Source: a virus
Length of the DNA stretch: 64,000 bases
Virus record (IMG/VR): IMGVR_UViG_3300009128_001633
Coordinates: 31,857 to 95,856 of that record
Strand: one strand, 5' to 3'
The position numbers were made by a program, and so were the translations under genes. Below, piece by piece: positions 1 through 31,653 of the stretch (its first letter is position 1; every line of letters starts with the position of its first letter). Below the pieces are notes generated by a model. That model saw nothing but the letters and a program-made list of their open reading frames with translations, was not told the DNA's origin and did not search any database.

Positions 1-318
1 ATTAATACCGCAATTATTACCAATCCTAGTATCTCCTTCACAATTAACTAATCCTCCTACATAAGTATTGTTCCCTATTATGGTACGAGGAAGGATGATT
101 GAATTATGACCTATGAATACTTTGTTTCCAAACTTACATCCTCCGTAAATAACACAACCAGATGAAAGTCTACACCAATCACCCAACTCAATTCTTCCAT
201 TTAATGGAAGTATATCCACAAAAGATACAGTTTCATCTATCGAAACATTATCGCCAACTTTCAAGTAGTTACGTTCAATTAGATGTTTGAATTTTTCTGG
301 TATTTTCGGAACTAACAC
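1..318 (-). CDS. Hexapeptide-repeat (left-handed beta-helix) acyltransferase, truncated by window edge
   Basis: Not in ORF track. Hand translation from GTG at 318 (GAAGGAG upstream) gives MLVPKIPEKF...VGDNVSID...IELGDWCRL...FGNKVFIGHNSII...IIGNNTYVG...IGNNCGIN, open to position 1. Confidence 0.8.
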   Translation of the reverse strand, partial: MLVPKIPEKFKHLIERNYLKVGDNVSIDETVSFVDILPLNGRIELGDWCRLSSGCVIYGGCKFGNKVFIGHNSIILPRTIIGNNTYVGGLVNCEGDTRIGNNCGIN

Positions 319-844
319 TTCCGCTACTCCTTCTTTCTCTAACACTAACAATACTAAAAACAGCTGGTTTTGAGATATGTACTAATTTAGCTAATTGTCC
401 ATAAGAAAAACCCATTTTCTTTCTCAGAATATATATCTCATCTTTTTGTTTTTTATTTAATTTCCATGTTGCTTTATTACTAACACGAAATCTATTTTTA
501 GAATAAAAATAATTTTTTGTACTCTTCACTGGACCAACACTTTTTTCTTTAACTCTGCTGAGTAAATGTTTTATCCGATCATATATTTCCCTTATTTCTC
601 TAAGTGCTTTATTATAAGAAGGATCGTTAACACCTAAACTGTTATGTATTTTCATAACCTTTTTTCTATACAACCAATCTGCCCAACTTAATTGTTCGCC
701 AATACATAACTTGTCATCTATATTAACAACTTCTTCTTCAAGAGCACCTAATGCGACAAAACACTTTTTCTTATTTAATGACTTTCTAACAACACTATAT
801 TTAACTTTCTTAGAAGGAAGTAGAGTATCCATATTATATACCAT
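275..844 (-). CDS. Basic protein with C-terminal helix-turn-helix
   Basis: C-terminal YILRKKMGFSYGQLAKLVHISKPAVFSIV is HTH-like. Confidence 0.55.
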   Translation of the reverse strand: MVYNMDTLLPSKKVKYSVVRKSLNKKKCFVALGALEEEVVNIDDKLCIGEQLSWADWLYRKKVMKIHNSLGVNDPSYNKALREIREIYDRIKHLLSRVKEKSVGPVKSTKNYFYSKNRFRVSNKATWKLNKKQKDEIYILRKKMGFSYGQLAKLVHISKPAVFSIVSVRERRSSGSVSSENTRKIQTSN

Positions 845-1748
845 ATACAGATTTTAATTTATCACCAATAGCTTTATAACTATGGTGATTTTCAACCCAT
901 AATCTAGTGTTTTTCTTGCATGAAAGTAGCTCCGAATTATTGAATTTAAGAAATTCTTTTAAGACACTTCTTAGTTCATTAATGTTATTAGCCACAATCA
1001 ACTCAGGATTATTATTGTATTCTCTAACATATCTATTGTAACTATTAAAATTAGTTATTACTAATTTTCCAAGAGCAGCAGCTTCTAACGCAGACACACC
1101 CCATTCACCTAATCTCATCTGCTCTATATAAATATCACATTCATTAACTCTTTCCATTTGCTCCTTCCAAGTAACTCTTTCTATAGAAAACCTGTATATG
1201 AATCTGCTTGCAACATCTCTATTGTGCTTTAATTCACTTATTGCTTTATTAACTATATTTGAACCTTTCGTATCAGCAGAAGATGGATAATGACCTACAA
1301 TTATTTTTTCACCTTCATTGAAGGAATAATCAGGCTTAATAGCTTCAATGTCTACAGCAGGAAGAACCCACTTCTCATTCTTGGCTCCCCTACCTAACAG
1401 ATCACCAGTTTGTATTAATGTTCTTTCTACAATGGGATTAAATACAGCATTTACTTTAGCAGGATTATCTCTATAGTGACCACCACCATGAAAAACAAAC
1501 ACTCTTTTTTTAGATAAATCAATACCGGTATCTATATAACTACTATGCATAAATTGTATAATGTCTGCTTCCTCAGCATAGTGTCTAACGTTTTCTAATG
1601 CAAAAGCTTTGTTTGGGTATTTATAGTAGTTAGGAGATTTACCCAACATTACAGCATCAACGCCAACTTTCTGTAGACACATGGAAAATGTGTACCCCAA
1701 ATTAGCCCAATCATTTTTTGCAAGTAACAAAACTCTCATTTCATCCAC
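834..1748 (-). CDS. Glycosyltransferase, GT-B fold (GT4-like)
   Basis: GHYPSSADTKG; CDIYIEQMRLGEWGVSALEAAALGKLVI; WVENHHSY. Confidence 0.8.
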   Translation of the reverse strand: MDEMRVLLLAKNDWANLGYTFSMCLQKVGVDAVMLGKSPNYYKYPNKAFALENVRHYAEEADIIQFMHSSYIDTGIDLSKKRVFVFHGGGHYRDNPAKVNAVFNPIVERTLIQTGDLLGRGAKNEKWVLPAVDIEAIKPDYSFNEGEKIIVGHYPSSADTKGSNIVNKAISELKHNRDVASRFIYRFSIERVTWKEQMERVNECDIYIEQMRLGEWGVSALEAAALGKLVITNFNSYNRYVREYNNNPELIVANNINELRSVLKEFLKFNNSELLSCKKNTRLWVENHHSYKAIGDKLKSVYGI

Positions 1749-2659
1749 CTCTCACAAACAAGATCTGTGAATTTATCAACCATGACCTTATTATTATAAT
1801 GTTTTCTAACAAATTCCATACCATTATTGGCAATCCACTCACGTTCGTGTTCTTGCTCTAAATAATATAGTATTTTTTTTCTCAAATCATTAAGACCATT
1901 ATAGATAACTAAATGTTTTCCATCAATGTAACCAAATTCTTTAAGATCCTCTGGTTTATCAGCTAATAAGAAAGATCCACAAGCCATCACTTCAGTATAT
2001 TTTCTACTTAGTGATCCAAAAATATTATTACTTGTGACAACTATCCTTGAATAATTAATATCATCAACATATTGACTAACTGTTGTTTTATTACGTTTAT
2101 AAGATACATTCATGGTTGATAACATATCCAACAACTTAGCTCTTAATGGATACACATCATCACGAATTGTGTATCTTGCACAAACATCATACTCTTTAAA
2201 AAAATTAAGTCTCTTTCTAAACACCTTAGTATTTACAGAAAATGGCATCAAAAAAGATTCTCTGCAAGCACCACATTCAACAACATATTTTCCCATATAT
2301 GACACTGGAACAAATGCTAAATCATATTTACTTCTTTCCATATATTCTTGATATTGCGGCTGACATCCTCTATAATTACCCTTCGGTGGAAAATAATCAA
2401 CAAGATAAATAAGTTTAGGTATAGTGACCTTATCCATATCTATTTCAAATGGCATTCTGAACCCATACTTAAATATAATATCAGGCTTATATTGGCTAAC
2501 AACATCTGTAATTGGCCTGTTTTCATCATAACCATCTCTAAGTGGACCCCACCATATAACCTCATGATATTTTGCAAACTCACTTACAAAATAGTGATGA
2601 CCAAGCAAATTCTGTTTCCCAACCTTCAACATATCTCTTACAATTAACAATATTCTCAT
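1736..2659 (-). CDS. Glycosyltransferase, CgeB/Glyco_trans_1_2-like
   Basis: KYTEVMACGSFLLAD...KILYYL...REWIANNGMEFVRKHY C-terminal signature. Confidence 0.85.
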   Translation of the reverse strand: MRILLIVRDMLKVGKQNLLGHHYFVSEFAKYHEVIWWGPLRDGYDENRPITDVVSQYKPDIIFKYGFRMPFEIDMDKVTIPKLIYLVDYFPPKGNYRGCQPQYQEYMERSKYDLAFVPVSYMGKYVVECGACRESFLMPFSVNTKVFRKRLNFFKEYDVCARYTIRDDVYPLRAKLLDMLSTMNVSYKRNKTTVSQYVDDINYSRIVVTSNNIFGSLSRKYTEVMACGSFLLADKPEDLKEFGYIDGKHLVIYNGLNDLRKKILYYLEQEHEREWIANNGMEFVRKHYNNKVMVDKFTDLVCERWMK

Positions 2660-3243
2660 TTTTTTATAAATAACCTTGTGCGTAGTTTTAATCTTCTAAA
2701 AACACTATTAAATTCATGTGCATAGAATCCAAACAATATTTTTCTCACTTCATCAGCATAATTATTAAACACTTCAGTTTCCCAATCATGAACACCGAGC
2801 ATATCCCCAGATTTTAAATATTCAGCATACATAATTATTTCTTTACCTTTATCACCATTATCACAATATAAAAATTTTCTACGAGGATTTGAAAGTAAAG
2901 AAACTAATAATTCATTTTTTTTATTCAAAATATTATCAACTATAAAAACTACATTACTATTAAACCCTTTTTCAACTAATTCAGTAATATCTTCGCTTGT
3001 AACTAACCCTCTGATTTTTTTACTTTCATATATAGAATTATTATCAAAAGAATATAGTAGAATGTTTTCATTACATTCATGCAATAATAAAGTAAACCCT
3101 CCAGTTCCTGTTCCCAATTCTATAATGATTTCAGGATCACGAAGTCTCACAGCATTTCTGATATATTGTTCAACTTCTTTTTCATGACACATTAACGCTT
3201 TCAACTCTGGAAAATATCTACTTTTATAAAAGTTTCTAATCAT
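2656..3243 (-). CDS. Class I SAM-dependent methyltransferase (CmcI/Methyltransf_24-like)
   Basis: Motif I IIIELGTGTGG; LYCDNG; LKSGDMLGVHD. Confidence 0.8.
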   Translation of the reverse strand: MIRNFYKSRYFPELKALMCHEKEVEQYIRNAVRLRDPEIIIELGTGTGGFTLLLHECNENILLYSFDNNSIYESKKIRGLVTSEDITELVEKGFNSNVVFIVDNILNKKNELLVSLLSNPRRKFLYCDNGDKGKEIIMYAEYLKSGDMLGVHDWETEVFNNYADEVRKILFGFYAHEFNSVFRRLKLRTRLFIKK

Positions 3244-3755
3244 TTTTTCACCATAGATTTAGCTGGAATACCAATAACTATATCACCTTCCTCAACGTTT
3301 TTTATCACAAGTGACATTGCTCCAACAACAGCATTCTCATCAACAACAACTCCTGGCATTATAGTTGACCCTGCACCAATATACGCACCATCGCATATGA
3401 TAGGAGGTAATTGAACACCTTTTACTTTACCTCTTAAAGTCATAACCATTGGACCAATAAAGACATCATTTCCTACAACAGTGCCGTCGGCTATGGATGC
3501 CGACGGCTTCCATTGTATGCGATTACCAAAAGAAGAATCAGTACCGGTTTTACAATAATGATCAATGAAAACATTATTACCTATTTTTGTTCCTTCCTTT
3601 AATAAAACCCAATTTTCTAATGTTACATCATCACCCACAATAACATTTTTTTCTATAACACACCAGCATCCAATCTTAAAATTACTTCCATGCTTAAAAG
3701 TAGGATGTACCGCATTGTTACCATAGCCCTCAACTTCTTTCCAATTTTCTAACAT
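3240..3755 (-). CDS. Hexapeptide-repeat N/O-acetyltransferase
   Basis: VGNDVFIGP...AYIGAGSTIMPGVVVDENAVVGAMSLVIKNV...VIGIPAK. Confidence 0.9.
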   Translation of the reverse strand: MLENWKEVEGYGNNAVHPTFKHGSNFKIGCWCVIEKNVIVGDDVTLENWVLLKEGTKIGNNVFIDHYCKTGTDSSFGNRIQWKPSASIADGTVVGNDVFIGPMVMTLRGKVKGVQLPPIICDGAYIGAGSTIMPGVVVDENAVVGAMSLVIKNVEEGDIVIGIPAKSMVKK

Positions 3756-4348
3756 AACGCCCTCCTATATATTAACTTTCTTACAATAAATGCTTCTGCA
3801 TATGCTTTTTCTGCATCTGTAATCAATGATGCCCAATATGCTTCTTTTTTCTTTATTATATTGATTTTTATAGTCTTCCTTTCAATTTGAGATTTAAAAT
3901 GTTTAACAAGTTTTAGTTTTAAATCAAAATCTATTAAACTAAACACATTCGGATGAAAATCATATGCACTACCACTATCATATATGTATGTTGTTATATA
4001 TTTTTTTCTACCAACCGACATGCCTATCCTAGAAGCTCTTATGTGATGTTGATGAGTATCCTTTTTAAATGGGACAAAGATAATATCAGGATGAAGATCA
4101 TCTAATTCCTTTATAACGGAATGATCTTCATCCATACTACAGAATGTAATGATATTAAACCTAGAAAATACATTAGCTTCTAACTGTTCTAAATATCTCT
4201 TCTTAGGATCTCCGGCCAAATCATCATCACTATTAGTTATACCAACAACAACTTTATCACCTCTCATTACATGCATATATAATGTTCCACCACAACTCAT
4301 CTCAGCATCATCGTAATGTGCTCCGACTGCCAATATGGTTTTACTCAT
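3749..4348 (-). CDS. PIG-L/LmbE family N-deacetylase
   Basis: LAVGAHYDDAEMSCGG (HxDD); DTHQHH; HFKSQ; start taken at MSKTIL after GGAGG. Confidence 0.9.
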   Translation of the reverse strand: MSKTILAVGAHYDDAEMSCGGTLYMHVMRGDKVVVGITNSDDDLAGDPKKRYLEQLEANVFSRFNIITFCSMDEDHSVIKELDDLHPDIIFVPFKKDTHQHHIRASRIGMSVGRKKYITTYIYDSGSAYDFHPNVFSLIDFDLKLKLVKHFKSQIERKTIKINIIKKKEAYWASLITDAEKAYAEAFIVRKLIYRRALC

Positions 4349-4539
4349 ACACCCTCCTTCATCCAATCTTTTATTTTTTTATAATCATTTTTAGTCCACT
4401 TTTCTTCTTTAGGATACACACAATATTTCGTACAATCAGGATGCATATCTCTAATGTTCTTCTTGTCTTGCTCGGTCAAAATAACCATCACCGGCTCTTT
4501 CTCTCTATCATAAACTTTATTACCAACTTTTACTTTCAT
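4345..4539 (-). CDS. Hypothetical protein (64 aa)
   Basis: Start/stop coupled to both neighbours. Confidence 0.6.
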   Translation of the reverse strand: MKVKVGNKVYDREKEPVMVILTEQDKKNIRDMHPDCTKYCVYPKEEKWTKNDYKKIKDWMKEGV

Positions 4540-5294
4540 TAGAAGTTATACCCCCCCTCATATGGTTTTTGATATTTTGCTGGTCTACCAAAATAAATCC
4601 CAGGTTTTTCTATATTTTTCATGACTAATGAACCCATTCCGATAATGACATTATCACAAATACTTACACCGTTTTTTATCGCAGTAGTTGCACCTATCCA
4701 ACAATTCTTACCAATTGTAACAGAACCACATATATGAACTGCTCCTGCTATAACTGTATTCTTACCTATGTAGCAATTGTGACCAACATTTGATTGAACA
4801 GCAATTTTGACACCATTTTTTATTATCGTTGAATCCATAGCTGCTCTATGCACTATTGCATGAGCTCCTATTTCAACATTATTACCAATGACAACATTTC
4901 CAACATGTATGAATTGTACTTTGCTTCCATCTGGACAATTAGCAAATTTGAATCCCTCAACACCAAGAACTGCTTTTGGATGTATTCTACAATTATTACC
5001 TATAAAAACAGATTGTATATCGAGTTTCATTCTACTTTTATTTATTTCATTATGTGTTACAGTAAACTCATAATCAGGATCATCAACAAAACAAATGTTA
5101 AGACTTTTATCTAAATTCAAACAGTTTCTCATATTTTTTGGAGCATATATAATAACATCAAACTCTTTACACTTATCTAATAGGTGTAGATAACTAAGAT
5201 CTCTTATGAATGTCATACAGCCATCTCTTGGTTTTAATAATGAACATGTATCAGTGTATTCTTTTTCAACTTTATACATCATACGCCCTCCCAT
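4539..5294 (-). CDS. LpxD-like hexapeptide acyltransferase
   Basis: LGVEGF...HVGNVVIGNNVEIGAHAIVHRA...STIIKNGVKI...VGHNCYIG, matching the LpxD core with its catalytic His. Confidence 0.85.
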   Translation of the reverse strand: MGGRMMYKVEKEYTDTCSLLKPRDGCMTFIRDLSYLHLLDKCKEFDVIIYAPKNMRNCLNLDKSLNICFVDDPDYEFTVTHNEINKSRMKLDIQSVFIGNNCRIHPKAVLGVEGFKFANCPDGSKVQFIHVGNVVIGNNVEIGAHAIVHRAAMDSTIIKNGVKIAVQSNVGHNCYIGKNTVIAGAVHICGSVTIGKNCWIGATTAIKNGVSICDNVIIGMGSLVMKNIEKPGIYFGRPAKYQKPYEGGYNF

Positions 5295-6040
5295 GATAAA
5301 AATTGATTTTTACTTGGTTTGTTGTAACCCATTTTCTCTCTCCAGTATCTACCACGTTTACCATCAACTAATGCATGATCTCCTGGATTGCCATATATGG
5401 CATAATCCCATTTCATAACTAACTGACTAAGGATTGGATCTTTTCTACGAAACTGCTTTTCTGGATTTACATCTCTTCTCATTAGTGGCAAAGCTTCTTT
5501 CATAAAAGATGTTCTTATTAAAGAAGGATTTAGAGAGAACGAATTTCCTGGGCTTTTAGATATACAAAAACCATCATGAACATCAAAAAACAAACCACTA
5601 ACTTCAACTATCCTTTTCGTATATGACTTTAGTTTTCTATTACAAAACCTTATAGAAGCCACACTATTATTTTTTTTCATAATTCGTATTAGACGACTTA
5701 TATCCACATCCCTAAATATTTGCCAATCATCTTCTAAATGAAAAAAATAATCAGATTCAACTTGATTCCATGCCCATATAACTGCGTTAGGGAAAGATGG
5801 CTTTGGTGATATGTTATATATAACATTTTTTCTGTTAAAAAATTTGTAACACATCTCAAGAACAACTTGTGGTATATGATTTTCACCAACAACATCTATA
5901 TTTATAATAAGCCTATAACTACCTTTTTCTTTAAAGACACGTTTAGTAAATGTTTCAAGTGTTCTTTTGACTATTTTGGGACGTATAACAGAAGTCATAG
6001 CTATGTCAATTTTTTTATTCAATTTCATCTCCATTTCCAA
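5279..6040 (-). CDS. Glycosyltransferase, GT-A fold (GT2-like)
   Basis: IAMTSVIRP; YFFHLEDDW; FSLNPSL. Confidence 0.75.
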   Translation of the reverse strand: MEMEMKLNKKIDIAMTSVIRPKIVKRTLETFTKRVFKEKGSYRLIINIDVVGENHIPQVVLEMCYKFFNRKNVIYNISPKPSFPNAVIWAWNQVESDYFFHLEDDWQIFRDVDISRLIRIMKKNNSVASIRFCNRKLKSYTKRIVEVSGLFFDVHDGFCISKSPGNSFSLNPSLIRTSFMKEALPLMRRDVNPEKQFRRKDPILSQLVMKWDYAIYGNPGDHALVDGKRGRYWREKMGYNKPSKNQFLSWEGV

Positions 6041-6812
6041 ATTGGAATGCTAACTCATTATTGTCACTAAAACAGCACATAGTAGACATTCGCTTATCTA
6101 TCCTTCTAGTAACCCAAGCATCAACAACTTTACCAACATCTATGGACCTACCACCATTTCTACGTATTTCACCACTATAAATCCGGCCTAATTCACCAGA
6201 AGCTAATATCCAAAGATCATAATCATTTGCCTCTTTTCTTATTTCATCTATAATACTATCATATGAAACATCATAATGATTACCAAAAAATCCAGGAATT
6301 AGTTTAACTGTAACAGATCTTGTATGTCTTGATAAAATTCTGTCAACCCTATAATAATTTGATATACAACATATGGAACGATGTCTAATTGTTTCAATTA
6401 GATTATGTCTAGCATTTTCAGCAAATAATAAAATACCCATTTCTGGACTACAAAACTTTCTGTTAATATTAATTCCTATCTCTGAATAAATTTCCTTCCA
6501 TTGAGATAACAATTTCCAATTATCAGGTGATGTTTTGCCTCTTTTTTTATGAGTTTTTTCAATAAAATAGAACTCAGGAGAATCAATATAATCAGCTTCG
6601 TTCGCACTATTTATCCAACTTTTTATTAAATTTTTAAAAAAGAAATGAGGAATGCCCTCCTGTCTACTGGTGGAATAGTCTGTGGTTCCATCTATAAATC
6701 TTTTCATGACCTTTAAACCACCATCATTAAACCTAATCATTGAAAATGGACTCCTAGAAACAATAGCCACTTGAAGATCACGAACAACCTCAGATACAGT
6801 TGACAATTTCAT
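6015..6812 (-). CDS. GT-D fold glycosyltransferase-like protein
   Basis: PFSMIRFNDGG...LWILASG...SIDVGKVVD resembles the RxxDGE...DxG signature. Confidence 0.65.
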   Translation of the reverse strand: MKLSTVSEVVRDLQVAIVSRSPFSMIRFNDGGLKVMKRFIDGTTDYSTSRQEGIPHFFFKNLIKSWINSANEADYIDSPEFYFIEKTHKKRGKTSPDNWKLLSQWKEIYSEIGININRKFCSPEMGILLFAENARHNLIETIRHRSICCISNYYRVDRILSRHTRSVTVKLIPGFFGNHYDVSYDSIIDEIRKEANDYDLWILASGELGRIYSGEIRRNGGRSIDVGKVVDAWVTRRIDKRMSTMCCFSDNNELAFQFGNGDEIE

Positions 6813-6821
6813 TTTAAACTC

Positions 6822-7886: not shown

Positions 7887-7957
7887 AATTACTAAAACAC
7901 TGGCCTTCTCATATTGTGATTAACAATTTCTCAATCCACAATTAACAAGGTTAAAAG

Positions 7958-11714: not shown

Positions 11715-11723
11715 TTTGCCCTC

Positions 11724-12089: not shown

Positions 12090-12108
12090 ATCGCCCTCCT
12101 AAAGTTAA

Positions 12109-13099: not shown

Positions 13100-13110
13100 T
13101 TATATACCTC

Positions 13111-13338: not shown

Positions 13339-13405
13339 TTTTCCACCTCCTTTAAATTAGTATAATATAGTTAATATACAAGTTAAGAAGCTAATTTATA
13401 ATAAA

Positions 13406-14472: not shown

Positions 14473-14870
14473 TATATATCCCCTAGACATTCTGGTTTAA
14501 CACTAAGTGCAGATGGATAAGGAGACCCGTTAAAAAATTTATCAACTTTTCTATCAAAATCACTATCAATGTATAAAAATTTTAGTTTATAATCAAATAT
14601 AACAAAAGGTTGTTTCATTTTAACTCCATTACAAACAAGAAAAACAGCATTAAAAGCACAATTATCATTTTTATCATGATAATGATGCAATATTGCATCA
14701 TTAGGACTTATATTACGAACTAGACTAGTGAAAACAATATTATATCCACTAAGATCTGGCATAAAACGTTTATCAGAAGAATCAACATTATGTGGAGATG
14801 AAAAAACTATGAAGGGATAAAAAAAACATAAAAACAAAATAAACAACGAAAATCTTTTTAAAGTACACAT
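14472..14870 (-). CDS. Secreted/periplasmic hypothetical protein
   Basis: N-terminal signal-peptide-like hydrophobic stretch. Confidence 0.55.
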   Translation of the reverse strand: MCTLKRFSLFILFLCFFYPFIVFSSPHNVDSSDKRFMPDLSGYNIVFTSLVRNISPNDAILHHYHDKNDNCAFNAVFLVCNGVKMKQPFVIFDYKLKFLYIDSDFDRKVDKFFNGSPYPSALSVKPECLGDI

Positions 14871-14896
14871 AGTTATATCTCCTGTTTTGCTATGAA

Positions 14897-15373
14897 CTAT
14901 CTTATGTTTTTGTTACTAAAAAACTTAAATATTTTTTCATATTTTTTTACAATCCATCTACTAAAACCATTAGCAATTTTTAAATCTCTTAATCTACAAT
15001 AAATATGCAATGGATTTAAAAAATGACTAAAACCACCTTTCCTTAAAACAAATTTCTCAAGAAACATACGATAAATCATTGTGATCATTATTAAAAATGT
15101 ACCAATCACAATAAATAAATCTTTTACTTTCCAATACCATCTATGCAAAAAATCAAAATCATAAAACGTACTTCCAATTCTACCGTAAACTAACATGTAA
15201 TAATGTAATACAATCCCCGCCATGGTTATTCCTACAGAAAAATATACATGACCAATACTTCCACGTTTAACCCATTTTCTTGTCCAATCCCAAACAAACA
15301 AACATAAAGTTATATAAGAAAACAAAGATATTGAAATATAACTCCAAAGAGTCCAATCATTTAGCACATCCAT
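14897..15373 (-). CDS. Integral membrane protein (3 TM)
   Basis: Three hydrophobic segments; start taken at MDVLND. Confidence 0.6.
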   Translation of the reverse strand: MDVLNDWTLWSYISISLFSYITLCLFVWDWTRKWVKRGSIGHVYFSVGITMAGIVLHYYMLVYGRIGSTFYDFDFLHRWYWKVKDLFIVIGTFLIMITMIYRMFLEKFVLRKGGFSHFLNPLHIYCRLRDLKIANGFSRWIVKKYEKIFKFFSNKNIR

Positions 15374-15548
15374 TAGACATCCTCCCCCACTTATTTTCAC
15401 CATTAAGAGTAACTTCAGCATTCTCTAATAAACAGTTAGCATTTTTAATCGATTTTTTTGTTTCACTTATGACCTTTAACACTTCTTCTCTTGATGTTCT
15501 TAAAGGCTTCCTCCACAAATGAAATTCTATATTCCCAAATAGTTTCAT
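15357..15548 (-). CDS. Hypothetical protein
   Basis: AAGGAG RBS; collinear with the operon. Confidence 0.5.
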   Translation of the reverse strand: MKLFGNIEFHLWRKPLRTSREEVLKVISETKKSIKNANCLLENAEVTLNGENKWGRMSNGCAK

Positions 15549-15563
15549 TTTTCGTTAACTCCT

Positions 15564-15794
15564 TTACGGTTTTTGGATGACTTTCATAATACCATCAAGT
15601 ACACCTGAAAAATGATCTACCGAAGTCCTAACATCCTTAAATGTATCCTGCATATCACCAATGGTACTCCAAGCCTTATCAGCTTCTTTTTCTCTTGCTT
15701 TTTCTTGCCAATATATAACAACTAAAAGACAAAACATACCAACAAGAGGCAATGGAATAACATTAAAAGCATCAGCTAACCATTTCATAAACAT
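15564..15794 (-). CDS. Single-TM + coiled-coil protein (holin/antiholin-like)
   Basis: IPLPLVGMFCLLVVIYW followed by a charged helix. Confidence 0.55.
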   Translation of the reverse strand: MFMKWLADAFNVIPLPLVGMFCLLVVIYWQEKAREKEADKAWSTIGDMQDTFKDVRTSVDHFSGVLDGIMKVIQKP

Positions 15795-15797
15795 CTC

Positions 15798-15998
15798 CTA
15801 TATTACAAACATTTTACCATTCTCTGTTATGTCAATTGTGGCAGTTTCAACTATGAATTCTCCACCGACTATTAGCTGTTCATATTCATCTATTGTTAAT
15901 GTTCCACTTGCTATTTTCCAATCCGTCACATTTTCAGCAGCATGTTCATCAGCATCTAATGTGCCATCAATGTCAAGAGATGTAGTTTGTATAGCCAT
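15798..15998 (-). CDS. Small acidic beta-rich hypothetical virion protein
   Basis: MAIQTT N-terminus shared with 19799-20329; GAGG RBS. Confidence 0.55.
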   Translation of the reverse strand: MAIQTTSLDIDGTLDADEHAAENVTDWKIASGTLTIDEYEQLIVGGEFIVETATIDITENGKMFVI

Positions 15999-16008
15999 AA
16001 TGAATACC

Positions 16009-17253
16009 TCATAATGATGTCTTACTTAAAACTAATGAACAAATATCAAGAACTGCCTTCAGATGTCTGACTGTAAGTTCTTTTACACCACTTTTCGCTA
16101 TTGCTAATTCATACAACACAACGAATAACAATTTCTGCAAATCATTCAATATCGCAGAATTGATTCTTATTTCCTTACCAACTAATTTAGCATCCGAACT
16201 AAGAAAATTATACGGATTAATAACTATGTTTGAATCAACAATGGCGACCAATTTTCTACAAACACTAAGATTTCCATCTTCATCATCGCTCAGAATACTC
16301 TTGCTAATCATAACTTCCTTCTTTTCATCCAATGCTTCAACAACTTTAGCATCTGTATTAATAAATTCTGCAAGAATATTTGTTAAATCTTTTGGAAAAG
16401 ATACAACAACATATTTATCAATTGATTTAAGCCTTTTAGAAGCAGATTTATCAACAGAAAGAACAGCATTGTTGCCATATTCTTTGTAAAAAGCTTTTTT
16501 CCAACGACCAATGTTTTCCTTTTGAATTGAAACTAAATCAGCACCATATTCACCTTTTTTAGTCCTGACGGCCTTGTAAAAAGTTCTTATTAGAGAAACA
16601 TCATCTACGGAAGACCATATATAACCAATACACCTTCTTATATCATACGGATCAGCAACATTTCCTTCATCTAATTTTATAAAAGGAGAATTATAACTAT
16701 ATCTATATTGACTTATTCCCTGACAAAATATGTCTCTGACATACAAACCTGAAGGTCTTTCTGCAACTATCTGTCCTTTGTTAGAAGAAAAAATTATTCT
16801 TTTATCACCTTTCTTAATTATTCTATTTTCAAAAACATCACCATTATACCCTTTTATGAAAACAGTTGTTCCATTCTTATGTTTAGCGTTATTTGTATAT
16901 TCAACAGCAAAAACAGATTCATTTTCTATTTCTTCAACAACAGATGATATCAACAAATCACCAGTATGGACTTTGACAACATAACCATTACGCAGAAACA
17001 CTATCATCGCTATTTTTAAACCTTCTCCATGTTTACCTCTTGGATTTTTAATCTTCTTATCCGTAACACCTAATATCAAATGTTTGAAGCTGAAACCATT
17101 ACCATTATCAAATATGGTGACACCTTCAAGAGATTTTTTAACAATAAAATACCCCGCTTCATCAAGCGAATTTTGATAAATCTCTCTAAAAGCTTCCCAA
17201 AATCCCCAATTTTTACGATATTGAATGCTTATTGGATATACTATTTTCTCCAT
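16009..17253 (-). CDS. GHKL (HATPase/Hsp90-like) ATPase
   Basis: REIYQNSLDE (N box), DNGNG (G1), GKHGEGLK (G2), GTTVFI. Confidence 0.85.
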   Translation of the reverse strand: MEKIVYPISIQYRKNWGFWEAFREIYQNSLDEAGYFIVKKSLEGVTIFDNGNGFSFKHLILGVTDKKIKNPRGKHGEGLKIAMIVFLRNGYVVKVHTGDLLISSVVEEIENESVFAVEYTNNAKHKNGTTVFIKGYNGDVFENRIIKKGDKRIIFSSNKGQIVAERPSGLYVRDIFCQGISQYRYSYNSPFIKLDEGNVADPYDIRRCIGYIWSSVDDVSLIRTFYKAVRTKKGEYGADLVSIQKENIGRWKKAFYKEYGNNAVLSVDKSASKRLKSIDKYVVVSFPKDLTNILAEFINTDAKVVEALDEKKEVMISKSILSDDEDGNLSVCRKLVAIVDSNIVINPYNFLSSDAKLVGKEIRINSAILNDLQKLLFVVLYELAIAKSGVKELTVRHLKAVLDICSLVLSKTSL

Positions 17254-17255
17254 AA

Positions 17256-18032
17256 CTAATATCTTTCTGGATACTTTTCTTTTAATAAACTTAAATTATG
17301 TTTCCGCAATTTCTCATATTCATCATCATTAAACATAATTTTAAATGTAGCTTTTGAATGGTGTATTACATAACAACTTAATGCTAATGCTAATTCTAAG
17401 CCACTCTGTTCTAATCTCCTTGCATAATCATCGTCATCACCTAGCCCAACACCAAACCTTTTATCCAAAAGCCCGACCCTCTTGATCGTTTCTCTACGAA
17501 ATGCGACACAAAAGAAAGCCAACATGCCTCTAATTCTTAAAAAAGTTGACCCATATTTATCTTCTAAAATCTTATTACATTCTTTGAGATTATTTGGATT
17601 ATCAAATTTCGGCAAATCATAAACTAGTTTTTCCCTCACCCTACCAAAATATTGCCAATCATGATCATTTGAATTAATTGGACCACATGCACCTATGTCC
17701 GGATTATTAAGTGGAGACAAAAGTTTTTGAATCCATCCATCACTAACAACAACATCATTATTCATAAAAATAACATATTTTCCATTAGTAGCTTTTATGC
17801 CTTGATTCAAACCACTAATCCACCCTAAATTTACATTATTATTAATTACATTCACCCAACTATGCTTCTTTAACCTATCAAGATATTGACACGTACCATC
17901 AGTGGAATTATTATTTATAATAGTCAATTTAAAATTCATTCCTCCACTACCATGAAGCATTGAAGTGATACACCTATGAGTATATTTTAAATTATTCCAC
18001 ACTGGGATTAATATATCTATATAGCTACCCAT
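17256..18032 (-). CDS. Glycosyltransferase family 2
   Basis: ILIPVWN...NNNSTDGT...NLG...NQG...FMNNDV...GLGDDDD. Confidence 0.92.
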   Translation of the reverse strand: MGSYIDILIPVWNNLKYTHRCITSMLHGSGGMNFKLTIINNNSTDGTCQYLDRLKKHSWVNVINNNVNLGWISGLNQGIKATNGKYVIFMNNDVVVSDGWIQKLLSPLNNPDIGACGPINSNDHDWQYFGRVREKLVYDLPKFDNPNNLKECNKILEDKYGSTFLRIRGMLAFFCVAFRRETIKRVGLLDKRFGVGLGDDDDYARRLEQSGLELALALSCYVIHHSKATFKIMFNDDEYEKLRKHNLSLLKEKYPERY

Positions 18033-18034
18033 TT

Positions 18035-19078
18035 TTAATTCCTCTTATTACTTATATCCACAACTTCTTCATATAATTTTAGATATTTCTTCGTTGCATT
18101 ATCCATGCAAAAGTTTTCTTGAGCATATTTAAGTGTTTCATTAAAAACATTTTCTGGATTATCATTTATGTTTTTCCAACATTCATAAATTGCATTTGCT
18201 ATTGAAACTGGATCCATAACAATGGCATGATATCTAGTATATCCACCACGATATGAAACGACCGGAATGCCCATAGCCATAGCTTCCAAAGTATCTCTAC
18301 TAGTTATACCATTTATGTTTGAATTAAATGAAATATCGGCACCTCTTAAAAATGGCCTTAAATCCCTTAACTGTAGTTGAACATTTTCACAATATATGCT
18401 TAAATTTTTTGCTTTCAATATTGTTTCTCTCCATAATGAAACATCTGTAAGTCTGATGCAAAATATGTTCAACCTTGCCTTGGGGATTAACTTTATAACT
18501 TCAGACATAGACCATAATAAAGACATAGGAGTTTTATTAAACCGTATGTTGGCAGTAGATATTATTGCTGGTCTATAGTCATATTCCCACTTAAACCCAT
18601 CAGGATTAAATCTTTGCAGATCAACAGAATCCTGTATGAACACTAAATTATTACCACGCTCATACATTTTCATTATATAATAATCAGACTCATTTATTGC
18701 AACAACTTTGTCAAATCGTTCTAAAAACGAAATATGTATATCAAACTTTTGCTGACCAGTTTGAGTTTCTAACATAACCATATATTCAGCAGTTCCATGC
18801 ATAATTGCTATATTACCATGTTTCCTAACATAAGGAACTAACTTCATCGGAACTGACCTATGCACGACCCAAACATCACATTCGTGTGCGTTTTTCCAAG
18901 GTTTACAAACAATACCACGATCAGTAAACCTTTCTGGATCTGGGTTTTCTTCATCGCAGTTTATTAAAATAGAATCCAATTCAGCTCTACGTTCACAAGT
19001 AATCTGGTCTATAACAAATTCGTGTAATCCAGATCTCCTTGGAGCCCATAAGCTAAAGTGAGCTATTTTCACTATCAA
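18035..19078 (-). CDS. Glycosyltransferase, GT4-like
   Basis: SGLHE; ADISFNS...LEAMAMGIPVV; likely GTG start at 19072. Confidence 0.85.
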   Translation of the reverse strand: MIVKIAHFSLWAPRRSGLHEFVIDQITCERRAELDSILINCDEENPDPERFTDRGIVCKPWKNAHECDVWVVHRSVPMKLVPYVRKHGNIAIMHGTAEYMVMLETQTGQQKFDIHISFLERFDKVVAINESDYYIMKMYERGNNLVFIQDSVDLQRFNPDGFKWEYDYRPAIISTANIRFNKTPMSLLWSMSEVIKLIPKARLNIFCIRLTDVSLWRETILKAKNLSIYCENVQLQLRDLRPFLRGADISFNSNINGITSRDTLEAMAMGIPVVSYRGGYTRYHAIVMDPVSIANAIYECWKNINDNPENVFNETLKYAQENFCMDNATKKYLKLYEEVVDISNKRN

Positions 19079-19799
19079 CCTCCCTAAAGAACCTTTTCCA
19101 CTTTATCATCTTCTTATATTGCTTCCACTCATTTTTACAAAATAAGTTAAAATCTTTTTCAGGTTCATCAATTTCTACATTCATAGCACCTAAACAAAAA
19201 CCAAAAATTCCAGCAAGAATGAAACCACTTTTTTCATTTAACCATTTTTCGCACAATATGTTGAAATGTTCAAAATCTACATCAAAGAAAGAAGCAAATT
19301 TTTGACCAGTTCCATAAAATCTTTTAAAATACCCTTCTTCAGAAATTTCAGGCATATGTATTCCTAAATTTCTACAAATCTTATGCTCCTCATATCCCCA
19401 TTTTTGTTTTATACTTCCCAAAGCCCATCTATCCCAGCCTATTTGATTTTTTATTTCTATATCTTTAATATAAGCTGTCTTCCATATGCGTACACCATAT
19501 ATTGTTGTTTGTAAAGTTACATCAAATAAACTACCAATGACAGAAGCAACATTTATCCTAGATATTATTTTATATAGTACATCTATTGCACTTGGAAATA
19601 AAATACAATCAGAATCCAATATTATTAAGTATTCATAATTACATTCATTTATAGCCTCTGATACAGCATTATATAATGGCTTATTTTCTATAATACGAAT
19701 ACTAAACTTTTTAAACGTTTGATGTTGGAGAGAGTCGATGCATTTATTAAAACGACTCTCTCCAACAGTCAATATTACTATTTCTAGCTGTTTATTCAT
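19053..19799 (-). CDS. Glycosyltransferase, GT2-like
   Basis: CIDSLQHQT; YLIILDSDCIL (DxD). Confidence 0.75.
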   Translation of the reverse strand: MNKQLEIVILTVGESRFNKCIDSLQHQTFKKFSIRIIENKPLYNAVSEAINECNYEYLIILDSDCILFPSAIDVLYKIISRINVASVIGSLFDVTLQTTIYGVRIWKTAYIKDIEIKNQIGWDRWALGSIKQKWGYEEHKICRNLGIHMPEISEEGYFKRFYGTGQKFASFFDVDFEHFNILCEKWLNEKSGFILAGIFGFCLGAMNVEIDEPEKDFNLFCKNEWKQYKKMIKWKRFFREVDSENSSL

Positions 19800-20329
19800 T
19801 ATGCAACCGAAACATCATTCCATCTAAATACAAAATCTCCAGCAGAATCTCTACGAATATCCGTAACACGATATTCTTCAGAAACTGGTATTGACTTAAT
19901 GTATTGTTCTAAACTAACTTCACTCTCGGCTTTTCGTGCCATTGAAATAGCTTTTTCAGCTTCTGAATCGACAATAACAGCATATGACTCTGCTATATCG
20001 GCTATTGAATCACCAACGACACCAAAAGACTCTCCACGACGTGCAATCGAGATAGATTTCTCACCTTCAGACTTGGCAAGTTCAGTTTCTGAATCAACAA
20101 TAACAGCATATGACTGTGCTAACACAGCTATTGATCTTGCTTCAGAAGGATCAGTAGAAAGATCAGCTTCCGACCTAGCTTCACTGGCTTCATCTTCAGC
20201 TATTCTTGCAATTGATATTGCCTTCTCAACTTCCGATTTTGAAAGTTCAGTTTCTGAGTCAACAATAGTAGCATATGACTTTGCAGTAGAAACATCATTT
20301 GGATCAAACTTAGTAGTTTGTATTGCCAT
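19799..20329 (-). CDS. Ser/Ala/Glu-rich internally repeated protein
   Basis: Three copies of AxSYAxIVDSE...EKxISxAR. Confidence 0.7.
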   Translation of the reverse strand: MAIQTTKFDPNDVSTAKSYATIVDSETELSKSEVEKAISIARIAEDEASEARSEADLSTDPSEARSIAVLAQSYAVIVDSETELAKSEGEKSISIARRGESFGVVGDSIADIAESYAVIVDSEAEKAISMARKAESEVSLEQYIKSIPVSEEYRVTDIRRDSAGDFVFRWNDVSVA

Positions 20330-20330
20330 A

Positions 20331-21452
20331 TCATACCTCCATAATCTTAATTATGTCACTAACCATACTATCTAATTGATAATCTCTTAAATGAGAAAAC
20401 TTCTCCTCATAAGCATGTTCACCAACTTTCTTGACACTATGGTTGAATAATTCTTTATTTTTTAAGTAACTATATAACTCTTTGTGACTTTCTGATTTAA
20501 GGGAGACCTCTCTCTTTAACGCTTCCTCTAAACCATCACAAAACTTTTGCCAACTAAACTGTTTAATTTTTACCAATCCAGATCTAGAAAGAATTACTCT
20601 AAGTTCACCATTATTTTTCAAAATACTATAAAACCTAGCTATTGTTTCTGGATTTACGTCAGGAATAACTAACGCTGTCTCATTGTTTATGGCAAAATTA
20701 GTAGTTCCAGCACTTGTACAAATAACTGGAGTTCCACACGCCATCGCTTCAGCAGCAGTATTACACCATCCAGCAAGACCTTCGGCACTTATGAAAATAT
20801 CAGCTTTACTATACATTTCCCTTAAACTATCTTGCGGTGGATTAACGTAATGTTCTATTTCTAATGGTGTGTCATACTTCCATTTCTGTACATCATATAG
20901 CATTAATACTGGTGGATCTTTAACTAATTCTAATGCCTTAACGATATTACCAGTATTTTTCCATCCACGATCAAACTTTGCATAAATAAGAACTCTAAAT
21001 TTATCATCTTTCTCAACTTCAACAGGATAAAATTGCTCAAGATTCACACCACCACTTATTGTATAACCTTTATTATTGAACTTTTGTGGAAACCTTTTCT
21101 CCCAACCATTTGAAACACCTATTAATATATAATCACTTTTAATATCATATGTACCAATACCATACCTTCTTGTATATGGAAAAATAATAAAAACAAATTT
21201 CTTTTGAGCATTGCATCTATCAAATATATCTAATGAAGGTGCATCACCACACATAAGCACTTCATGTTTAACACTATGTACATTTTCAATTGGTGACAAT
21301 TTACCATTATATTTAAACCAATCTGGAGGAGAACCATCACTGTGATATATTGTATAATCATATCCCCTGATAACCATCTCATTACCTATCTCAAGAAATC
21401 TCTTAACTCCTCCGTATAATTTCAAATGTGGTAATATAACGCTTATTTTCAT
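20331..21452 (-). CDS. Glycosyltransferase family 4
   Basis: YGGVKR; MYSKADIFIS...EAMACGTPVICT...FSWQ. Confidence 0.92.
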   Translation of the reverse strand: MKISVILPHLKLYGGVKRFLEIGNEMVIRGYDYTIYHSDGSPPDWFKYNGKLSPIENVHSVKHEVLMCGDAPSLDIFDRCNAQKKFVFIIFPYTRRYGIGTYDIKSDYILIGVSNGWEKRFPQKFNNKGYTISGGVNLEQFYPVEVEKDDKFRVLIYAKFDRGWKNTGNIVKALELVKDPPVLMLYDVQKWKYDTPLEIEHYVNPPQDSLREMYSKADIFISAEGLAGWCNTAAEAMACGTPVICTSAGTTNFAINNETALVIPDVNPETIARFYSILKNNGELRVILSRSGLVKIKQFSWQKFCDGLEEALKREVSLKSESHKELYSYLKNKELFNHSVKKVGEHAYEEKFSHLRDYQLDSMVSDIIKIMEV

Positions 21453-21654: not shown

Positions 21655-21663
21655 AATAAACTC

Positions 21664-21909: not shown

Positions 21910-21916
21910 AACAAAC

Positions 21917-25203: not shown

Positions 25204-25216
25204 AATAAATATCTCC

Positions 25217-31651: not shown

Positions 31652-31653
31652 AA

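Follow-up and report, generated by a model that had tools for sequence, protein, structure and literature searches.

An enzyme island of about 27.1 kb, more than a quarter of the known genome of an uncultured marine tailed phage, most likely serves to sugar-coat the phage's own fibre-like (virion) proteins, a reading to which we give slightly less than an even chance. As the best explanation of the region itself, we propose a horizontally mobile glycan-assembly region. The window that we analysed is a stretch of 64,000 nucleotides (positions 31,857 to 95,856 of IMG/VR record IMGVR_UViG_3300009128_001633); the record as a whole is 95.9 kb and 69% complete. Eleven island genes within the window encode glycosyltransferases (GTs), together carrying 13 domains, and others encode three hexapeptide acyltransferases, one PIG-L deacetylase and one probable methyltransferase. 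The preliminary description had listed the same GT genes and domains, and its enzyme calls all hold. It had also noted that the island runs off the window edge, and the block proves larger than claimed, extending 5.7 kb beyond base 1 and ending at record position 26159. Two further GTs, a GT-B and a PF13524 GT, lie in this outer part together with WecB (UDP-GlcNAc 2-epimerase; 1.9e-88), an amidohydrolase, a methyltransferase and a pair of hexapeptide transferases, so that the island in full totals 13 GT genes with 15 domains.

The island genes all run in the same direction as the virion genes and lie close against one another and against them (minus strand for every gene described here between positions 1 and 22614), occupying the distal end of this virion-gene operon or strand, as previously described; terminators show no excess across the island. 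The density of GTs is not a chance outcome, with five PF00534 and two PF00535 matches in this record, whereas four related phage records have 0-1 apiece. Relatives with a 74-82% identical major capsid protein lack the island, which is therefore accessory; because these relatives share the head-tail module, no core virion protein requires it. The island is not part of the conserved virion programme. Three modules make it up, A (17256-21452), D (3749-12089) and E (at the window start), and they do not form one operon-like unit. Neither an integrase nor a resolvase was found in the record, and the phage is apparently lytic, siphovirus-like and marine.

Module A opens with a GT1/GT4 (20331-21452; PF00534 3.1e-13), 59% identical to a homologue encoded by a longer ORF (587 aa) in another phage, L057. 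Its other enzymes, a GT2-like protein (19053-19799; PF00535 4.2e-8), a GT-B (18035-19078; PF13692 26.2 bits, just under the cut-off) and a GT2 (17256-18032; PF00535 1.5e-26), have L057 homologues at 44%, 61% and 61%, respectively. A GHKL-ATPase-like protein of 414 aa (16009-17253; PF13589 0.0022; phrog_6077 2.8e-36) travels with the module, its 43% homologue lying at the same place in L057, and four small non-enzyme genes (21469-22614; 61, 125, 139 and 92 aa), which matched no Pfam or PHROG family, are syntenic there in the same order at 39-74% identity. In L057, module A sits between tail proteins and a tail-fibre gene. Enclosed by the module at the same position in both phages is an acidic Ser-Glu-repeat protein of 176 aa (19799-20329) with three internal repeats, in which the SE dipeptide is 12-fold as frequent as in the phage background (23-fold in the homologue from L057). 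It shares a conserved C-terminal domain of ~40 aa with 21469-21654, and is a candidate glycan acceptor or fibre.

The first enzyme of module D is a GT9+GT8 fusion (9810-11714; PF01075 1.6e-15, PF01501 4.6e-11) with an invariant four-cysteine insert, C-x2-C-x7-C-x10-C, in the GT9 C-lobe. The best PDB folds for its model (pLDDT 82) were 3TOV, WaaF and WaaC, with TibC at rank 11; WaaF/WaaC-type enzymes are nearest to the GT9 domain by both sequence and fold, and the family model of the protein-modifying TibC gave no match. For the GT8 domain, the nearest enzymes are WbbM and an LPS galactosyltransferase. All 15 full-length homologues of the fusion come from metagenome or viral sources, and a search of 185,579 cellular species genomes returned one distant match (32% over the GT9 part). 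Judged by these searches, the family appears essentially phage-restricted and almost absent from cellular genomes. A protein of 121 aa (11724-12089), whose N-terminus is basic and Ser-rich and whose model shows one long helix, is always encoded immediately before the GT9+GT8 gene, its homologues in contigs L041, L042, L044, L046 and L047 included, and is a candidate partner, acceptor or regulator.

The next enzyme is a tandem double GT9-like protein (7958-9841; Atlas TM 0.75-0.78), whose halves (residues 13-306 and 327-624) each align to viral Atlas clusters of ~300 aa named GT9. In L041-L051 the two halves match the same genes, whether single or double, and in L044 and L042 the double-GT9 gene is fused to the GT9+GT8 gene. 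A GT-B follows (6822-7886; BLASTP 6.7e-5 to the C-lobe of 20331-21452; homologues in 7 contigs at 40-48%), then a GT-D-like GT (6015-6812; PF22882 2.4e-4 and NF040628 1.8e-5, both below cut-offs) with homologues at 43-51% in L043, L044 and L048; the corresponding slot in L046 holds a GT-D gene (PF08759, 2e-10). A GT-A of GT2-like type (5279-6040; 43% homologue in L043) matched GT2-labelled, mostly viral clusters by Atlas structure (TM 0.67-0.81). Pfam gave no match for this protein or the double GT9, whose GT calls come solely from ESM Atlas feature and structure searches; in their nearest clusters, 63-96% of the members that have a taxon are viral. The module also encodes an LpxD-like left-handed beta-helix N-acyltransferase (4539-5294), whose NCBIfam LpxD match (9.7e-47) lies under the equivalog cut-off and leaves the N-terminal domain unmatched; it also has a NeuD/PglB/VioB match (1.2e-23) and homologues in L043 and L046. 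The last conserved gene encodes a PIG-L/LmbE-type GlcNAc de-N-acetylase (3749-4366; PF02585 3e-9; homologues in L043, at 44%, and L046).

Toward the window start lie a hexapeptide-repeat acyltransferase with paralogues (3240-3755; Pfam Hexapep 1.3e-21), a GT of the PF13524 (CgeB-like GT-B) family (1736-2659; 1.2e-15) with a paralogue at record 28801-29748 (41% aa), and, in module E, a GT4-like GT-B (834-1748; PF00534 26.5 bits, at the cut-off, and 28.2 bits in a six-frame search) and the C-terminal part of a 219-aa hexapeptide-repeat acyltransferase (1-351; Pfam Hexapep 1.1e-11, whole gene 1.4e-26), whose gene begins outside the window (record 31548-32207). Pfam confirmed the three hexapeptide acyltransferases and the PIG-L enzyme of the preliminary description. 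Its SAM methyltransferase could be placed at 2656-3243 as a probable class I enzyme, from weak NCBIfam Erm/KsgA SAM-binding matches, a motif I (IIELGTGTGG, that is, E-x-G-x-G-x-G) and BLASTP similarity (E 0.001) to a methyltransferase, supported by Pfam, at record 28242-28811. Module E arose by duplications. A very basic 189-aa protein (275-844; net charge +24) with a C-terminal HTH like sigma-70 region 4 (NCBIfam 6.6e-4 to 0.03, below cut-offs) is not an enzyme but a candidate regulator within the island.

Small structural genes had been described as interleaved with the enzymes. This is borne out for two fibre-like proteins, 19799-20329 and a 258-aa protein at 12323-13099, whose C-terminus resembles those of the tail-fibre-like proteins 24424-25203 and 25217-26455 (BLASTP 2.8e-5 and 8.3e-5, with tblastn cross-matches); otherwise the genes between the modules (12109-15794) are mainly a lysis-like cassette. 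That cassette, which divides the island (13406-15794; PF18925 1.9e-21; TM scan), encodes a DUF5675 protein, two proteins with three and two TM segments, one anchored at its N-terminus and a small TM protein. DUF5675 has been reported as a C82-like lysin domain (bioRxiv 10.64898/2026.04.11.717860), and its product here is a candidate C82-peptidase-like lysin. Homologues of the cassette precede module D in L041. A small o-spanin-like lipoprotein (12109-12342; lipobox L-S-G-C; TM scan) makes a diderm host probable.

This arrangement bears on whether all modules share one target. Module A, embedded among tail and fibre genes, might act on a virion fibre protein while D and E target something other than the virion, such as a lipid-linked acceptor of the host: the modules occur apart elsewhere (A without D in L057, D without A in L041-L051), the lysis cassette separates them here with D and E following it like classic morons, and the repeat protein is enclosed by module A only, in both carrier phages. 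We nevertheless consider such a division improbable, as beyond enzyme families there is no positive sign that D or E is directed at the host, and the poly-serine neighbours of module D in L046 suggest that D, too, has a protein target. There, two co-oriented giant proteins, 78% and 63% serine, lie beside a homologous module D cassette 3.6 kb downstream; they are obvious O-glycosylation acceptors, a link to module D that comes from L046 as the single contig with enough flank. In the relative G002, the fibre region holds a beta-helix protein with a serine tract of ~220 residues.

The gene order of module D is fixed in at least ten metagenome contigs, at 40-60% identity, with differing flanks and a GC content of 29-36%. 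The tailoring genes beside it vary, from acyltransferases in this phage to about seven methyltransferases in L044. This pattern fits an autonomous conserved backbone with variable decoration.

We favour a virion target, as the preliminary description did, because the enzyme families are phage-restricted, module A encloses the Ser-Glu-repeat protein and the poly-serine giants lie beside a homologous cassette. Its inference needs qualifying: no protein of this phage, structural proteins included, carries a poly-Ser or Ser/Thr-rich acceptor tail, and its candidate acceptors are no more than moderately rich in serine. We infer the acceptor, sugars, timing and benefit of the glycan as follows. Late in infection, soluble phage enzymes in the cytoplasm would assemble a hetero-oligosaccharide or polysaccharide specific to the phage, building it straight onto phage-encoded fibre-like proteins that then enter the particle. 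Host pools would supply the sugar donors, with phage WecB turning part of the UDP-GlcNAc into UDP-ManNAc and the four GT9-type domains drawing on ADP-heptose-type donors. The module D core (GT9+GT8, the two GT9, GT-B, GT-D and GT-A) would lay the conserved backbone, the PIG-L deacetylase and LpxD-like acyltransferase would exchange N-acetyl for another acyl group, and the remaining hexapeptide transferases and methyltransferases would add lineage-specific decoration. Module A (GT1, GT2, GT-B, GT2) would work on or with its enclosed repeat protein. The resulting particle coat could alter adsorption, stability or recognition.

The GTs might instead lengthen a sugar chain on hydroxymethylated bases of phage DNA, since the record encodes a thymidylate-synthase-family (hydroxymethylase-type) gene (record 7944-9146) and LPS-related phage GTs can put mono-, di- or trisaccharides, including heptose, on DNA, some of their clusters lying near structural genes (Pyle et al., bioRxiv 10.1101/2023.12.21.572611). 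We regard this as very improbable: the hydroxymethylase-type gene is 17 kb off, on the other strand among early genes, no island enzyme matched T4-type DNA GTs in the searches run, and the DNA glycans of that study reach at most a trisaccharide (bioRxiv 10.1101/2023.12.21.572611), needing far fewer steps than the 15 GT domains and five acyltransferases here could provide.

A TM scan found no anchor on any island enzyme, all of which are soluble, and the 95.9-kb record contains no flippase, polymerase, polytopic membrane protein or other ORF with at least six TM segments. These observations agree with the preliminary description; its use of them as an argument for a virion target fails to discriminate. 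LPS-core GTs of the same families (GT9, GT8, GT4) are likewise soluble, peripheral and TM-less, and use the host's own MsbA and ligase (Waa pathway); such pathways require neither anchored GTs nor a phage flippase. Soluble phage GTs on the cytoplasmic side of the inner membrane could then act on host lipid-linked acceptors (lipid A-core, Und-PP-GlcNAc), with host MsbA, Wzx or an ABC exporter and the host ligase carrying the changed glycan (LPS, O-antigen-like or capsule) to the cell surface. Superinfection would thereby be blocked, or progeny would be kept from binding to debris and to cells already infected. The probable diderm host is consistent with such remodelling, the changing acyl and methyl tailoring resembles O-antigen diversity, and fibre genes are natural companions of a receptor modifier; co-location with them is equally expected for such a system. 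We judge this remodelling credible but on balance unlikely. The enzymes are not host-like, the GT9+GT8 family being almost absent from cellular genomes, and the same cassette in phages with unrelated fibres and differing GC would have to suit many hosts' acceptors. In a phage without integrase, a place at the far end of the virion genes is late for altering the surface. The number of GTs, thirteen, suggests that a whole glycan is made de novo and not that an existing one is modified, and the poly-serine neighbours in L046 would be left unexplained.

Compared with known systems, the island has likenesses on both sides. GT9, GT8, GT4, LpxD-like and WecB enzymes make up the classic LPS and O-antigen toolkit, likewise TM-less, and this counts against virion glycosylation, as do the WaaF/WaaC-type folds of the GT9 domain and the absence of a match to the TibC family model. 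In favour of envelope remodelling, GT-rich fibre regions in pelagimyophages and cyanophages have been read in print as host O-chain modification (PMC7029224, PMC12801897). Glycosylation of virions by phage GTs has a mycobacteriophage precedent (PMC12619734). The enzyme set had been called unusually large for a phage, which is true against published isolates; GT-rich host-recognition regions were already described (PMC7029224), and similar GT islands beside phage fibre genes are known from published work.

Searches against Pfam, NCBIfam and the ESM Atlas supported every entry of the enzyme list that the preliminary description had drawn up from the sequence alone: the window holds 11 glycosyltransferase (GT) genes with 13 GT domains, three hexapeptide acyltransferases, a PIG-L deacetylase and a probable methyltransferase (2656-3243). 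Two GT calls come solely from Atlas searches (7958-9841, tandem GT9-like, and 5279-6040, GT-A), and three lie at or just under Pfam cut-offs (834-1748, 18035-19078 and 6015-6812). The island had also been said to run off the window edge, and it indeed extends past base 1 to record position 26159, adding the rest of the first acyltransferase, an amidohydrolase, two hexapeptide transferases, a PF13524 GT, a methyltransferase, a UDP-GlcNAc 2-epimerase (1.9e-88) and a terminal GT-B. The whole island measures ~27.1 kb, or 28% of the record, and totals 13 GT genes (15 GT domains), five acyltransferases, two deacetylase/hydrolase genes, two methyltransferases and one epimerase. The feature is real and larger than first reported. 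The lack of TM anchors described for the GTs holds for all island enzymes, and no ORF with six or more hydrophobic/TM segments, as expected of polytopic membrane proteins, was found in the 95.9-kb record.

The GT9+GT8 protein at 9810-11714 matched both of its families well above threshold. Its GT9 part scored 57.5 bits against PF01075 (cut-off 22), and its GT8 part, whose profile matches the WbbM GT8 domain, scored 43.2 bits against PF01501 (cut-off 24.3), with both aspartates of the GT8 D-x-D motif (D461 and D463) invariant in 15 homologues. The predicted structure found 3TOV, 1PSW (WaaF) and WaaC as its top PDB matches (E 4e-16 to 1e-10), and the G-D and D-S-x-x-x-H-I-A-G-A-L motifs align with those of WaaF. 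The NCBIfam equivalogs for LPS heptosyltransferases were all missed (TIGR02195, 44.1 bits against a cut-off of 134.6; TIGR02193, 38.8 against 185.3; TIGR02201, 32.7 against 170.2). The double-GT9 protein (7958-9841) was assigned to its family by an Atlas feature and structure search. The GT-D-like protein (6015-6812) falls below the cut-offs of both Pfam (20.9 bits vs 27) and NF040628 (24.4 vs 75), and the gene in the equivalent slot of the related contig L046, matched by position, reaches 41.3 bits against 27 for PF08759. A PDB sequence search returned nothing significant for 7958-9841, 5279-6040 or the DUF5675 protein discussed below.

The IMG/VR record of 95,856 bp, of which the window spans bases 31857-95856, is rated 69% complete, giving an estimated full genome of ~140 kb. 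From the terminase (53739-55595), which has only distant cultured relatives, to the left edge of the window, all sizeable ORFs are tightly packed on the minus strand, and the switch to early genes on the other strand lies beyond the island end at record position 26159. Upstream of the island are a Mu-type portal, a protease, a major head protein, a 2572-aa tape measure and a lambda-J-like central fibre (phrog_31, 7e-126). The late region is siphovirus-like, and no sheath or baseplate match was obtained among the proteins scanned. GC content of the island is 30-32%, against 35-39% for the structural genes. No integrase or resolvase was found in the 69%-complete record and no tRNA in the window, and a promoter/terminator scan gave signals no higher than those of shuffled sequences. 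The early region, 15.2 kb before the window start, encodes a Lys-rich protein that contains several Cys pairs and 14 consecutive Asp (record 15572-16687 (+)). The sole poly-Ser ORF in the record is the antisense shadow of this poly-Asp tract and was rejected as an acceptor.

The island is a composite of three modules: A (17256-21452), D (3749-12089) and E, the duplication-built remainder. Module A, together with the adjoining GHKL gene and four small genes (21469-22614), recurs in the same order in the IMG/VR contig L057 at 39-74% identity; there, a tape measure and tail proteins border one flank, and a tail-fibre gene the opposite flank. A Ser-Glu-repeat protein keeps its position between the GTs in L057; the L057 homologue is longer and richer in Ser-Glu (23x background), and its final ~40 residues are nearly identical. 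Module D, read from 12089 to 3749, encodes a 121-aa coiled-coil protein, GT9+GT8, double GT9, GT-B, GT-D-like and GT-A proteins, a hexapeptide transferase, an LpxD-like transferase and PIG-L, an order repeated in at least 10 metagenome contigs (contig GC 29-36%) at 40-60% identity. Module E consists of paralogues, the five hexapeptide transferases sharing 29-38% identity and two PF13524 GTs sharing 41% (aa) and 72% (nt).

The tailoring genes of module D vary among the contigs. L044 has its acyltransferases swapped for about seven sugar-type methyltransferases (TylF, FkbM, CmcI-like), and those of L046 comprise a methyltransferase, PIG-L and a hexapeptide transferase, its cassette ending, as the island does, in a homologue (53%) of the terminal GT-B. 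In L044 a single 1260-aa ORF (4106-7888 (+)) fuses GT9+GT8+GT9+GT9, and the GT-B and GT-D genes are followed at 9751-15573 (+) by nine ORFs of ~200-245 aa, including at least six methyltransferases (TylF, FkbM, Methyltransf_24/11). L046 also encodes two adjacent giant ORFs (3554-8907 (+)), of 807 aa (78% Ser, in runs of five to eight serines broken by K/R) and 963 aa (63% Ser), co-oriented, tightly spaced and 3.6 kb upstream of its module D homologue; the 963-aa ORF includes a ~200-aa globular domain in the same frame, and the pair is immediately preceded by genes for a nucleotide-sugar epimerase and a radical-SAM protein. A 125-aa beta-rich protein conserved ahead of module D in L041, L044 and L046 is missing from this genome.

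The island is missing from relatives with the same head-tail module. Four such records are known, their capsids being 74-82% identical to that of this phage; none of the four has a GT2 match, one has a weak GT1 match located elsewhere, and phmmer with all island proteins gave essentially no match to them. In the most complete relative, G002 (114.6 kb), large fibre-like ORFs take the place of the island in the 20 kb that follow the central fibre. The island is accessory, and since the relatives differ after the central fibre, this region is hypervariable in the lineage. One of the fibre-like ORFs of G002, at 1621-3504 (-), encodes 628 aa, in which a ~220-residue serine tract links an N-terminal part resembling a beta-helix to a C-terminal domain; its surroundings hold no GT island, and a weak GT9-like ORF lies at 90743-91807 on the opposite strand.

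Homologues of the GT9+GT8 protein come almost entirely from viral or environmental sequence. All 15 full-length homologues are metagenomic or viral in source, the 185,579 cellular species genomes searched yielded a single distant partial match, and no cultured phage was found to carry one. Against 50,697 phage records, megablast with the whole island found no match and tblastn with 9810-11714 and 1736-2659 found no actinophage match; for 7958-9841 and 5279-6040, most of the closest Atlas clusters are viral. When IMG/VR was scanned with one protein at a time, neither the GT9+GT8 protein nor the J-like fibre returned anything, and a profile scan returned one weak locus.

A stretch without glycan enzymes (11724-17253) splits the island. 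It encodes a lipobox protein (12109-12342), a 3-TM protein, a DUF5675 protein, an N-terminally anchored protein and a 2-TM protein, and DUF5675 has been described in a 2026 preprint as a C82-peptidase-like lysin domain (bioRxiv 10.64898/2026.04.11.717860). We therefore read the stretch as the lysis cassette of a phage with a diderm host. The DUF5675 (C82-like) candidate endolysin and the neighbouring 3-TM protein (phrog_6637) lie at 13406-15794 (-), and the pair is kept ahead of module D in L041 (1376-2442; 52% and 48%). At one end, the 11724-12089 protein is modelled as a single long helix. At the other, a 414-aa GHKL/HATPase_c_3-like protein (16009-17253 (-), phrog_6077) adjoins module A, as it does in L057; a role as a chaperone or ATP-dependent step in fibre or glycan assembly is possible. 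Within the enzyme blocks, a 189-aa, very basic (+24) protein at 275-844 (-) has a sigma-70 region-4-like HTH and may regulate the distal part of the island.

Other interrupting genes look like parts of fibres. The 258-aa protein at 12323-13099 (-) resembles, at its C-terminus, the two tail-fibre-like proteins at 24424-26455. The domain concerned (~175-210 aa) is common to 24424-25203, 25217-26455 (these two 73% identical) and 12323-13099, and is found again, 51-63% identical, in eight IMG/VR contigs that share nothing else with this phage or each other (L006-L013); an IMG/VR scan with 25217-26455 likewise recovered just the ~175-aa domain, in unrelated contigs. It has the look of a mobile module for the fibre tip or for receptor binding. 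The Ser-Glu-repeat protein of module A (19799-20329 (-)) is an acidic 176-aa protein with three internal repeats, in which the Ser-Glu dipeptide is 12x as frequent as in the remaining phage proteins. It shares an N-terminal M-A-I-Q-T-T with 15798-15998 (-) and a ~37-aa C-terminal domain with 21469-21654 (-), a pattern that suggests interchangeable attachment domains. A likeness of its C-terminus to the T4 fibritin foldon was considered and set aside, a PDB sequence search with the last 50 residues having given no significant match.

The enzyme families allow a tentative outline of the glycan. WecB implies a ManNAc-type sugar. Four GT9-type domains retain G-D and D-S-x-x-x-H motifs alignable to WaaF, which suggests ADP-heptose-type donors; the ADP-heptose pathway families SIS_2 and CTP_transf_like are absent from the record, so the host's ADP-heptose pool would have to serve. 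The gene for a GlcNAc de-N-acetylase adjoins that for an LpxD-like N-acyltransferase, and this pair suggests that an N-acetyl group is exchanged for another acyl group by the logic of LpxC/LpxD. The remaining transferases and the methyltransferases would then add variable decorations.

What the glycan is attached to bears on the central claim of the preliminary description, that the phage glycosylates its own particle. Virion or fibre-protein glycosylation is the best-supported reading, to which we give close to an even chance, and to that extent the claim stands. One argument advanced for it, the absence of TM anchors and of a flippase, is not decisive, because LPS-core GTs of the same families are peripheral too and depend on host export. 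A phage-protein target is favoured instead because the island enzymes are phage-restricted, because the L046 cassette comes after two Ser-rich giant proteins, and because module A sits among tail genes and encloses the Ser-Glu-repeat protein in both phages that carry it. Moreover, the backbone is conserved in a fixed order, with swappable tailoring, in phages whose flanks are unrelated, which speaks for a glycan that is autonomous and not fitted to a single host's lipid acceptor.

Several observations weaken a phage-protein target. The poly-serine link rests on a single contig, L046; a poly-serine protein is present there and in G002 and was not found in this phage, and none of its proteins, including the capsid (46718-47956) and the C-termini of the tube region, has a Ser/Thr-rich acceptor tail. 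The best folds for the GT9 domain are 3TOV, WaaF and WaaC, with the protein glycosyltransferase TibC at rank 11 and the TibC/Aah family model unmatched. The location among fibre genes would be expected equally of a system that modifies the receptor, and remodelling of the host envelope is a serious rival, which we hold to be less likely.

Glycosylation of the phage DNA is unlikely. In the DNA hypermodification clusters of Pyle et al. (bioRxiv 10.1101/2023.12.21.572611), GTs lie beside a base-hydroxymethylating enzyme of the 5mYOX or ThyS type, and the DNA glycans demonstrated there are trisaccharides at most. The GTs here are not next to such an enzyme: the sole PF00303 (hydroxymethylase-type) gene, at record 7944-9146, is separated by 17 kb from the nearest island gene and lies on the opposite strand.

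Returning to phage proteins as the target, we offer a fuller picture tentatively, as possible: a mobile, phage-restricted cassette would build a conserved core oligosaccharide on phage fibre proteins that is re-decorated in each lineage, the viral equivalent of the way O-antigen serotypes diversify. Here the cassette would be stacked with a second fibre-linked module, making the island among the densest glycan factories of tailed phages. The novel aspects are how densely such genes are packed in a siphovirus-like genome, the resolution of the island into mobile modules, a GT9+GT8 cassette that is restricted to phages and always accompanied by a small partner gene, and the pairing of two acyl-editing enzymes. 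Should the glycan sit on the particle, tailed phages that infect Gram-negative marine bacteria would bear complex, variable, bacterial-like sugar coats of their own making, which to our knowledge have so far been shown just for giant viruses and a few mycobacteriophages. How marine viruses adsorb, aggregate, are grazed and decay would all be affected by such a coat, and so would the interpretation of 'LPS genes', at present routinely classed as host-directed auxiliary metabolic genes. If the target is the host envelope, this would be an unusually complete phage-borne receptor-masking pathway in a lytic phage. The fixed-order cassette offers a compact unit of ~8 kb for reconstitution, and the phage-restricted GT9+GT8 family a handle for finding similar systems in metagenomes.

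Among known glycan systems, a Gtr-type serotype-conversion module is not a match: such modules belong to temperate phages and consist of membrane proteins (the flippase GtrA, GtrB and a polytopic Gtr-type transferase), and the 69%-complete record showed neither an ORF with six or more TM segments nor an integrase or resolvase. Chlorovirus PBCV-1 and Mimivirus use clusters of soluble virus GTs with acetyl- and methyltransferases to make bacterial-like methylated or acylated glycans, which vary between clades, on particle proteins in the cytoplasm; these giant viruses infect eukaryotes, and we liken them to the island by description, not by sequence.

LPS core assembly uses the same CAZy-type families, WaaC, WaaF and WaaQ being GT9, WaaG GT4, and WaaO, WaaR and WaaJ GT8. 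The likeness extends to peripheral enzymes without TM segments, to WaaF as the best sequence match and to a deacetylase beside an LpxD-like acyltransferase. The island differs in that NCBIfam equivalog scores are far under the cut-offs (heptosyltransferase II, 44 vs 134.6 bits), the GT9 domain bears an N-terminal extension of ~65 residues and a four-Cys insert, the deacetylase is of the PIG-L type and not LpxC, the LpxD-like protein has no LpxD N-terminal domain, and the gene fusions and gene order are unseen in cellular genomes.

TibC and Aah, which are soluble and have the GT9 fold, modify proteins in the cytoplasm, and TibC has an extra N-terminal domain and a four-Cys iron finger, C-x2-C-x15-C-x11-C, inserted in its C-lobe (PMC4358343). 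The GT9 C-lobe of 9810-11714 likewise has an insert, C-x2-C-x2-H-x4-C-x10-C, absent from the neighbouring double-GT9 protein (7958-9841), in which C330, C333, C341, C352 and H336 are invariant (15 and 7 homologues). It is modelled at low confidence (pLDDT ~50), and at the N-terminus the model has ~65 additional residues that include beta strands. Among the significant fold matches to this model is TibC (rank 11, TM 0.54), WaaF-type folds ranking higher, and the family model of the bacterial autotransporter heptosyltransferases (BAHT) TibC and Aah, TIGR04414, matched nothing in the whole 95.9-kb record at E up to 1. Insert and extension are reminiscent of what TibC has as iron finger and extra domain, though with a different Cys spacing; we treat this as a resemblance only, and the insert as a putative metal site.

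Virion glycosylation is established for mycobacteriophages (as cited in PMC12619734), with Che8, Corndog and Myrna as the examples (Freeman et al. 2023, as cited in PMC12619734 and PMC11256854). In these systems soluble phage GTs, with a methyltransferase in some phages, are proposed or shown to glycosylate the phages' own structural proteins in the cytoplasm (PMC12619734, PMC11256854). Those systems have few enzymes and place glycans on capsid and tail-tube C-termini, whereas the island has 13 GTs, five acyltransferases and deacetylases. In addition, this phage has no Ser/Thr tail on capsid or tube, the two island GTs tested (9810-11714 and 1736-2659) gave no actinophage homologue among 50,697 phage records, and so none of the Che8 type, and the host is read as diderm.

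A parallel in setting is the GT-rich fibre region of pelagimyophages and cyanomyophages, which has been read as modifying the host O-chain (Zaragoza-Solas et al. 2020, PMC7029224). Like this host recognition cluster (PMC7029224; S-SCSM2R, S-SCSM1 and P-SSM2 in PMC12801897), the island is a marine, hypervariable, post-tail region that mixes fibre genes with many GTs: fibre-like genes lie among its GT modules at 24424-26455, 12323-13099 and 19799-20329, where the head-tail relatives carry other genes. Prominent GT8 domains, sugar epimerases and close relatives that differ in content are also common to both, and in both the function is predicted from sequence. The phages that carry the host recognition cluster are T4-like myoviruses of ~200 kb, whereas this phage is siphovirus-like and does not match a T4-like backbone. 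GT density also differs, with 13 GT genes in the 27 kb of the island against 13 in a whole genome there, a number called a possible record. Finally, in contrast to the host recognition cluster, the island's enzymes are phage-restricted rather than host-like, and its core is a mobile cassette of fixed order with acyl-editing enzymes.
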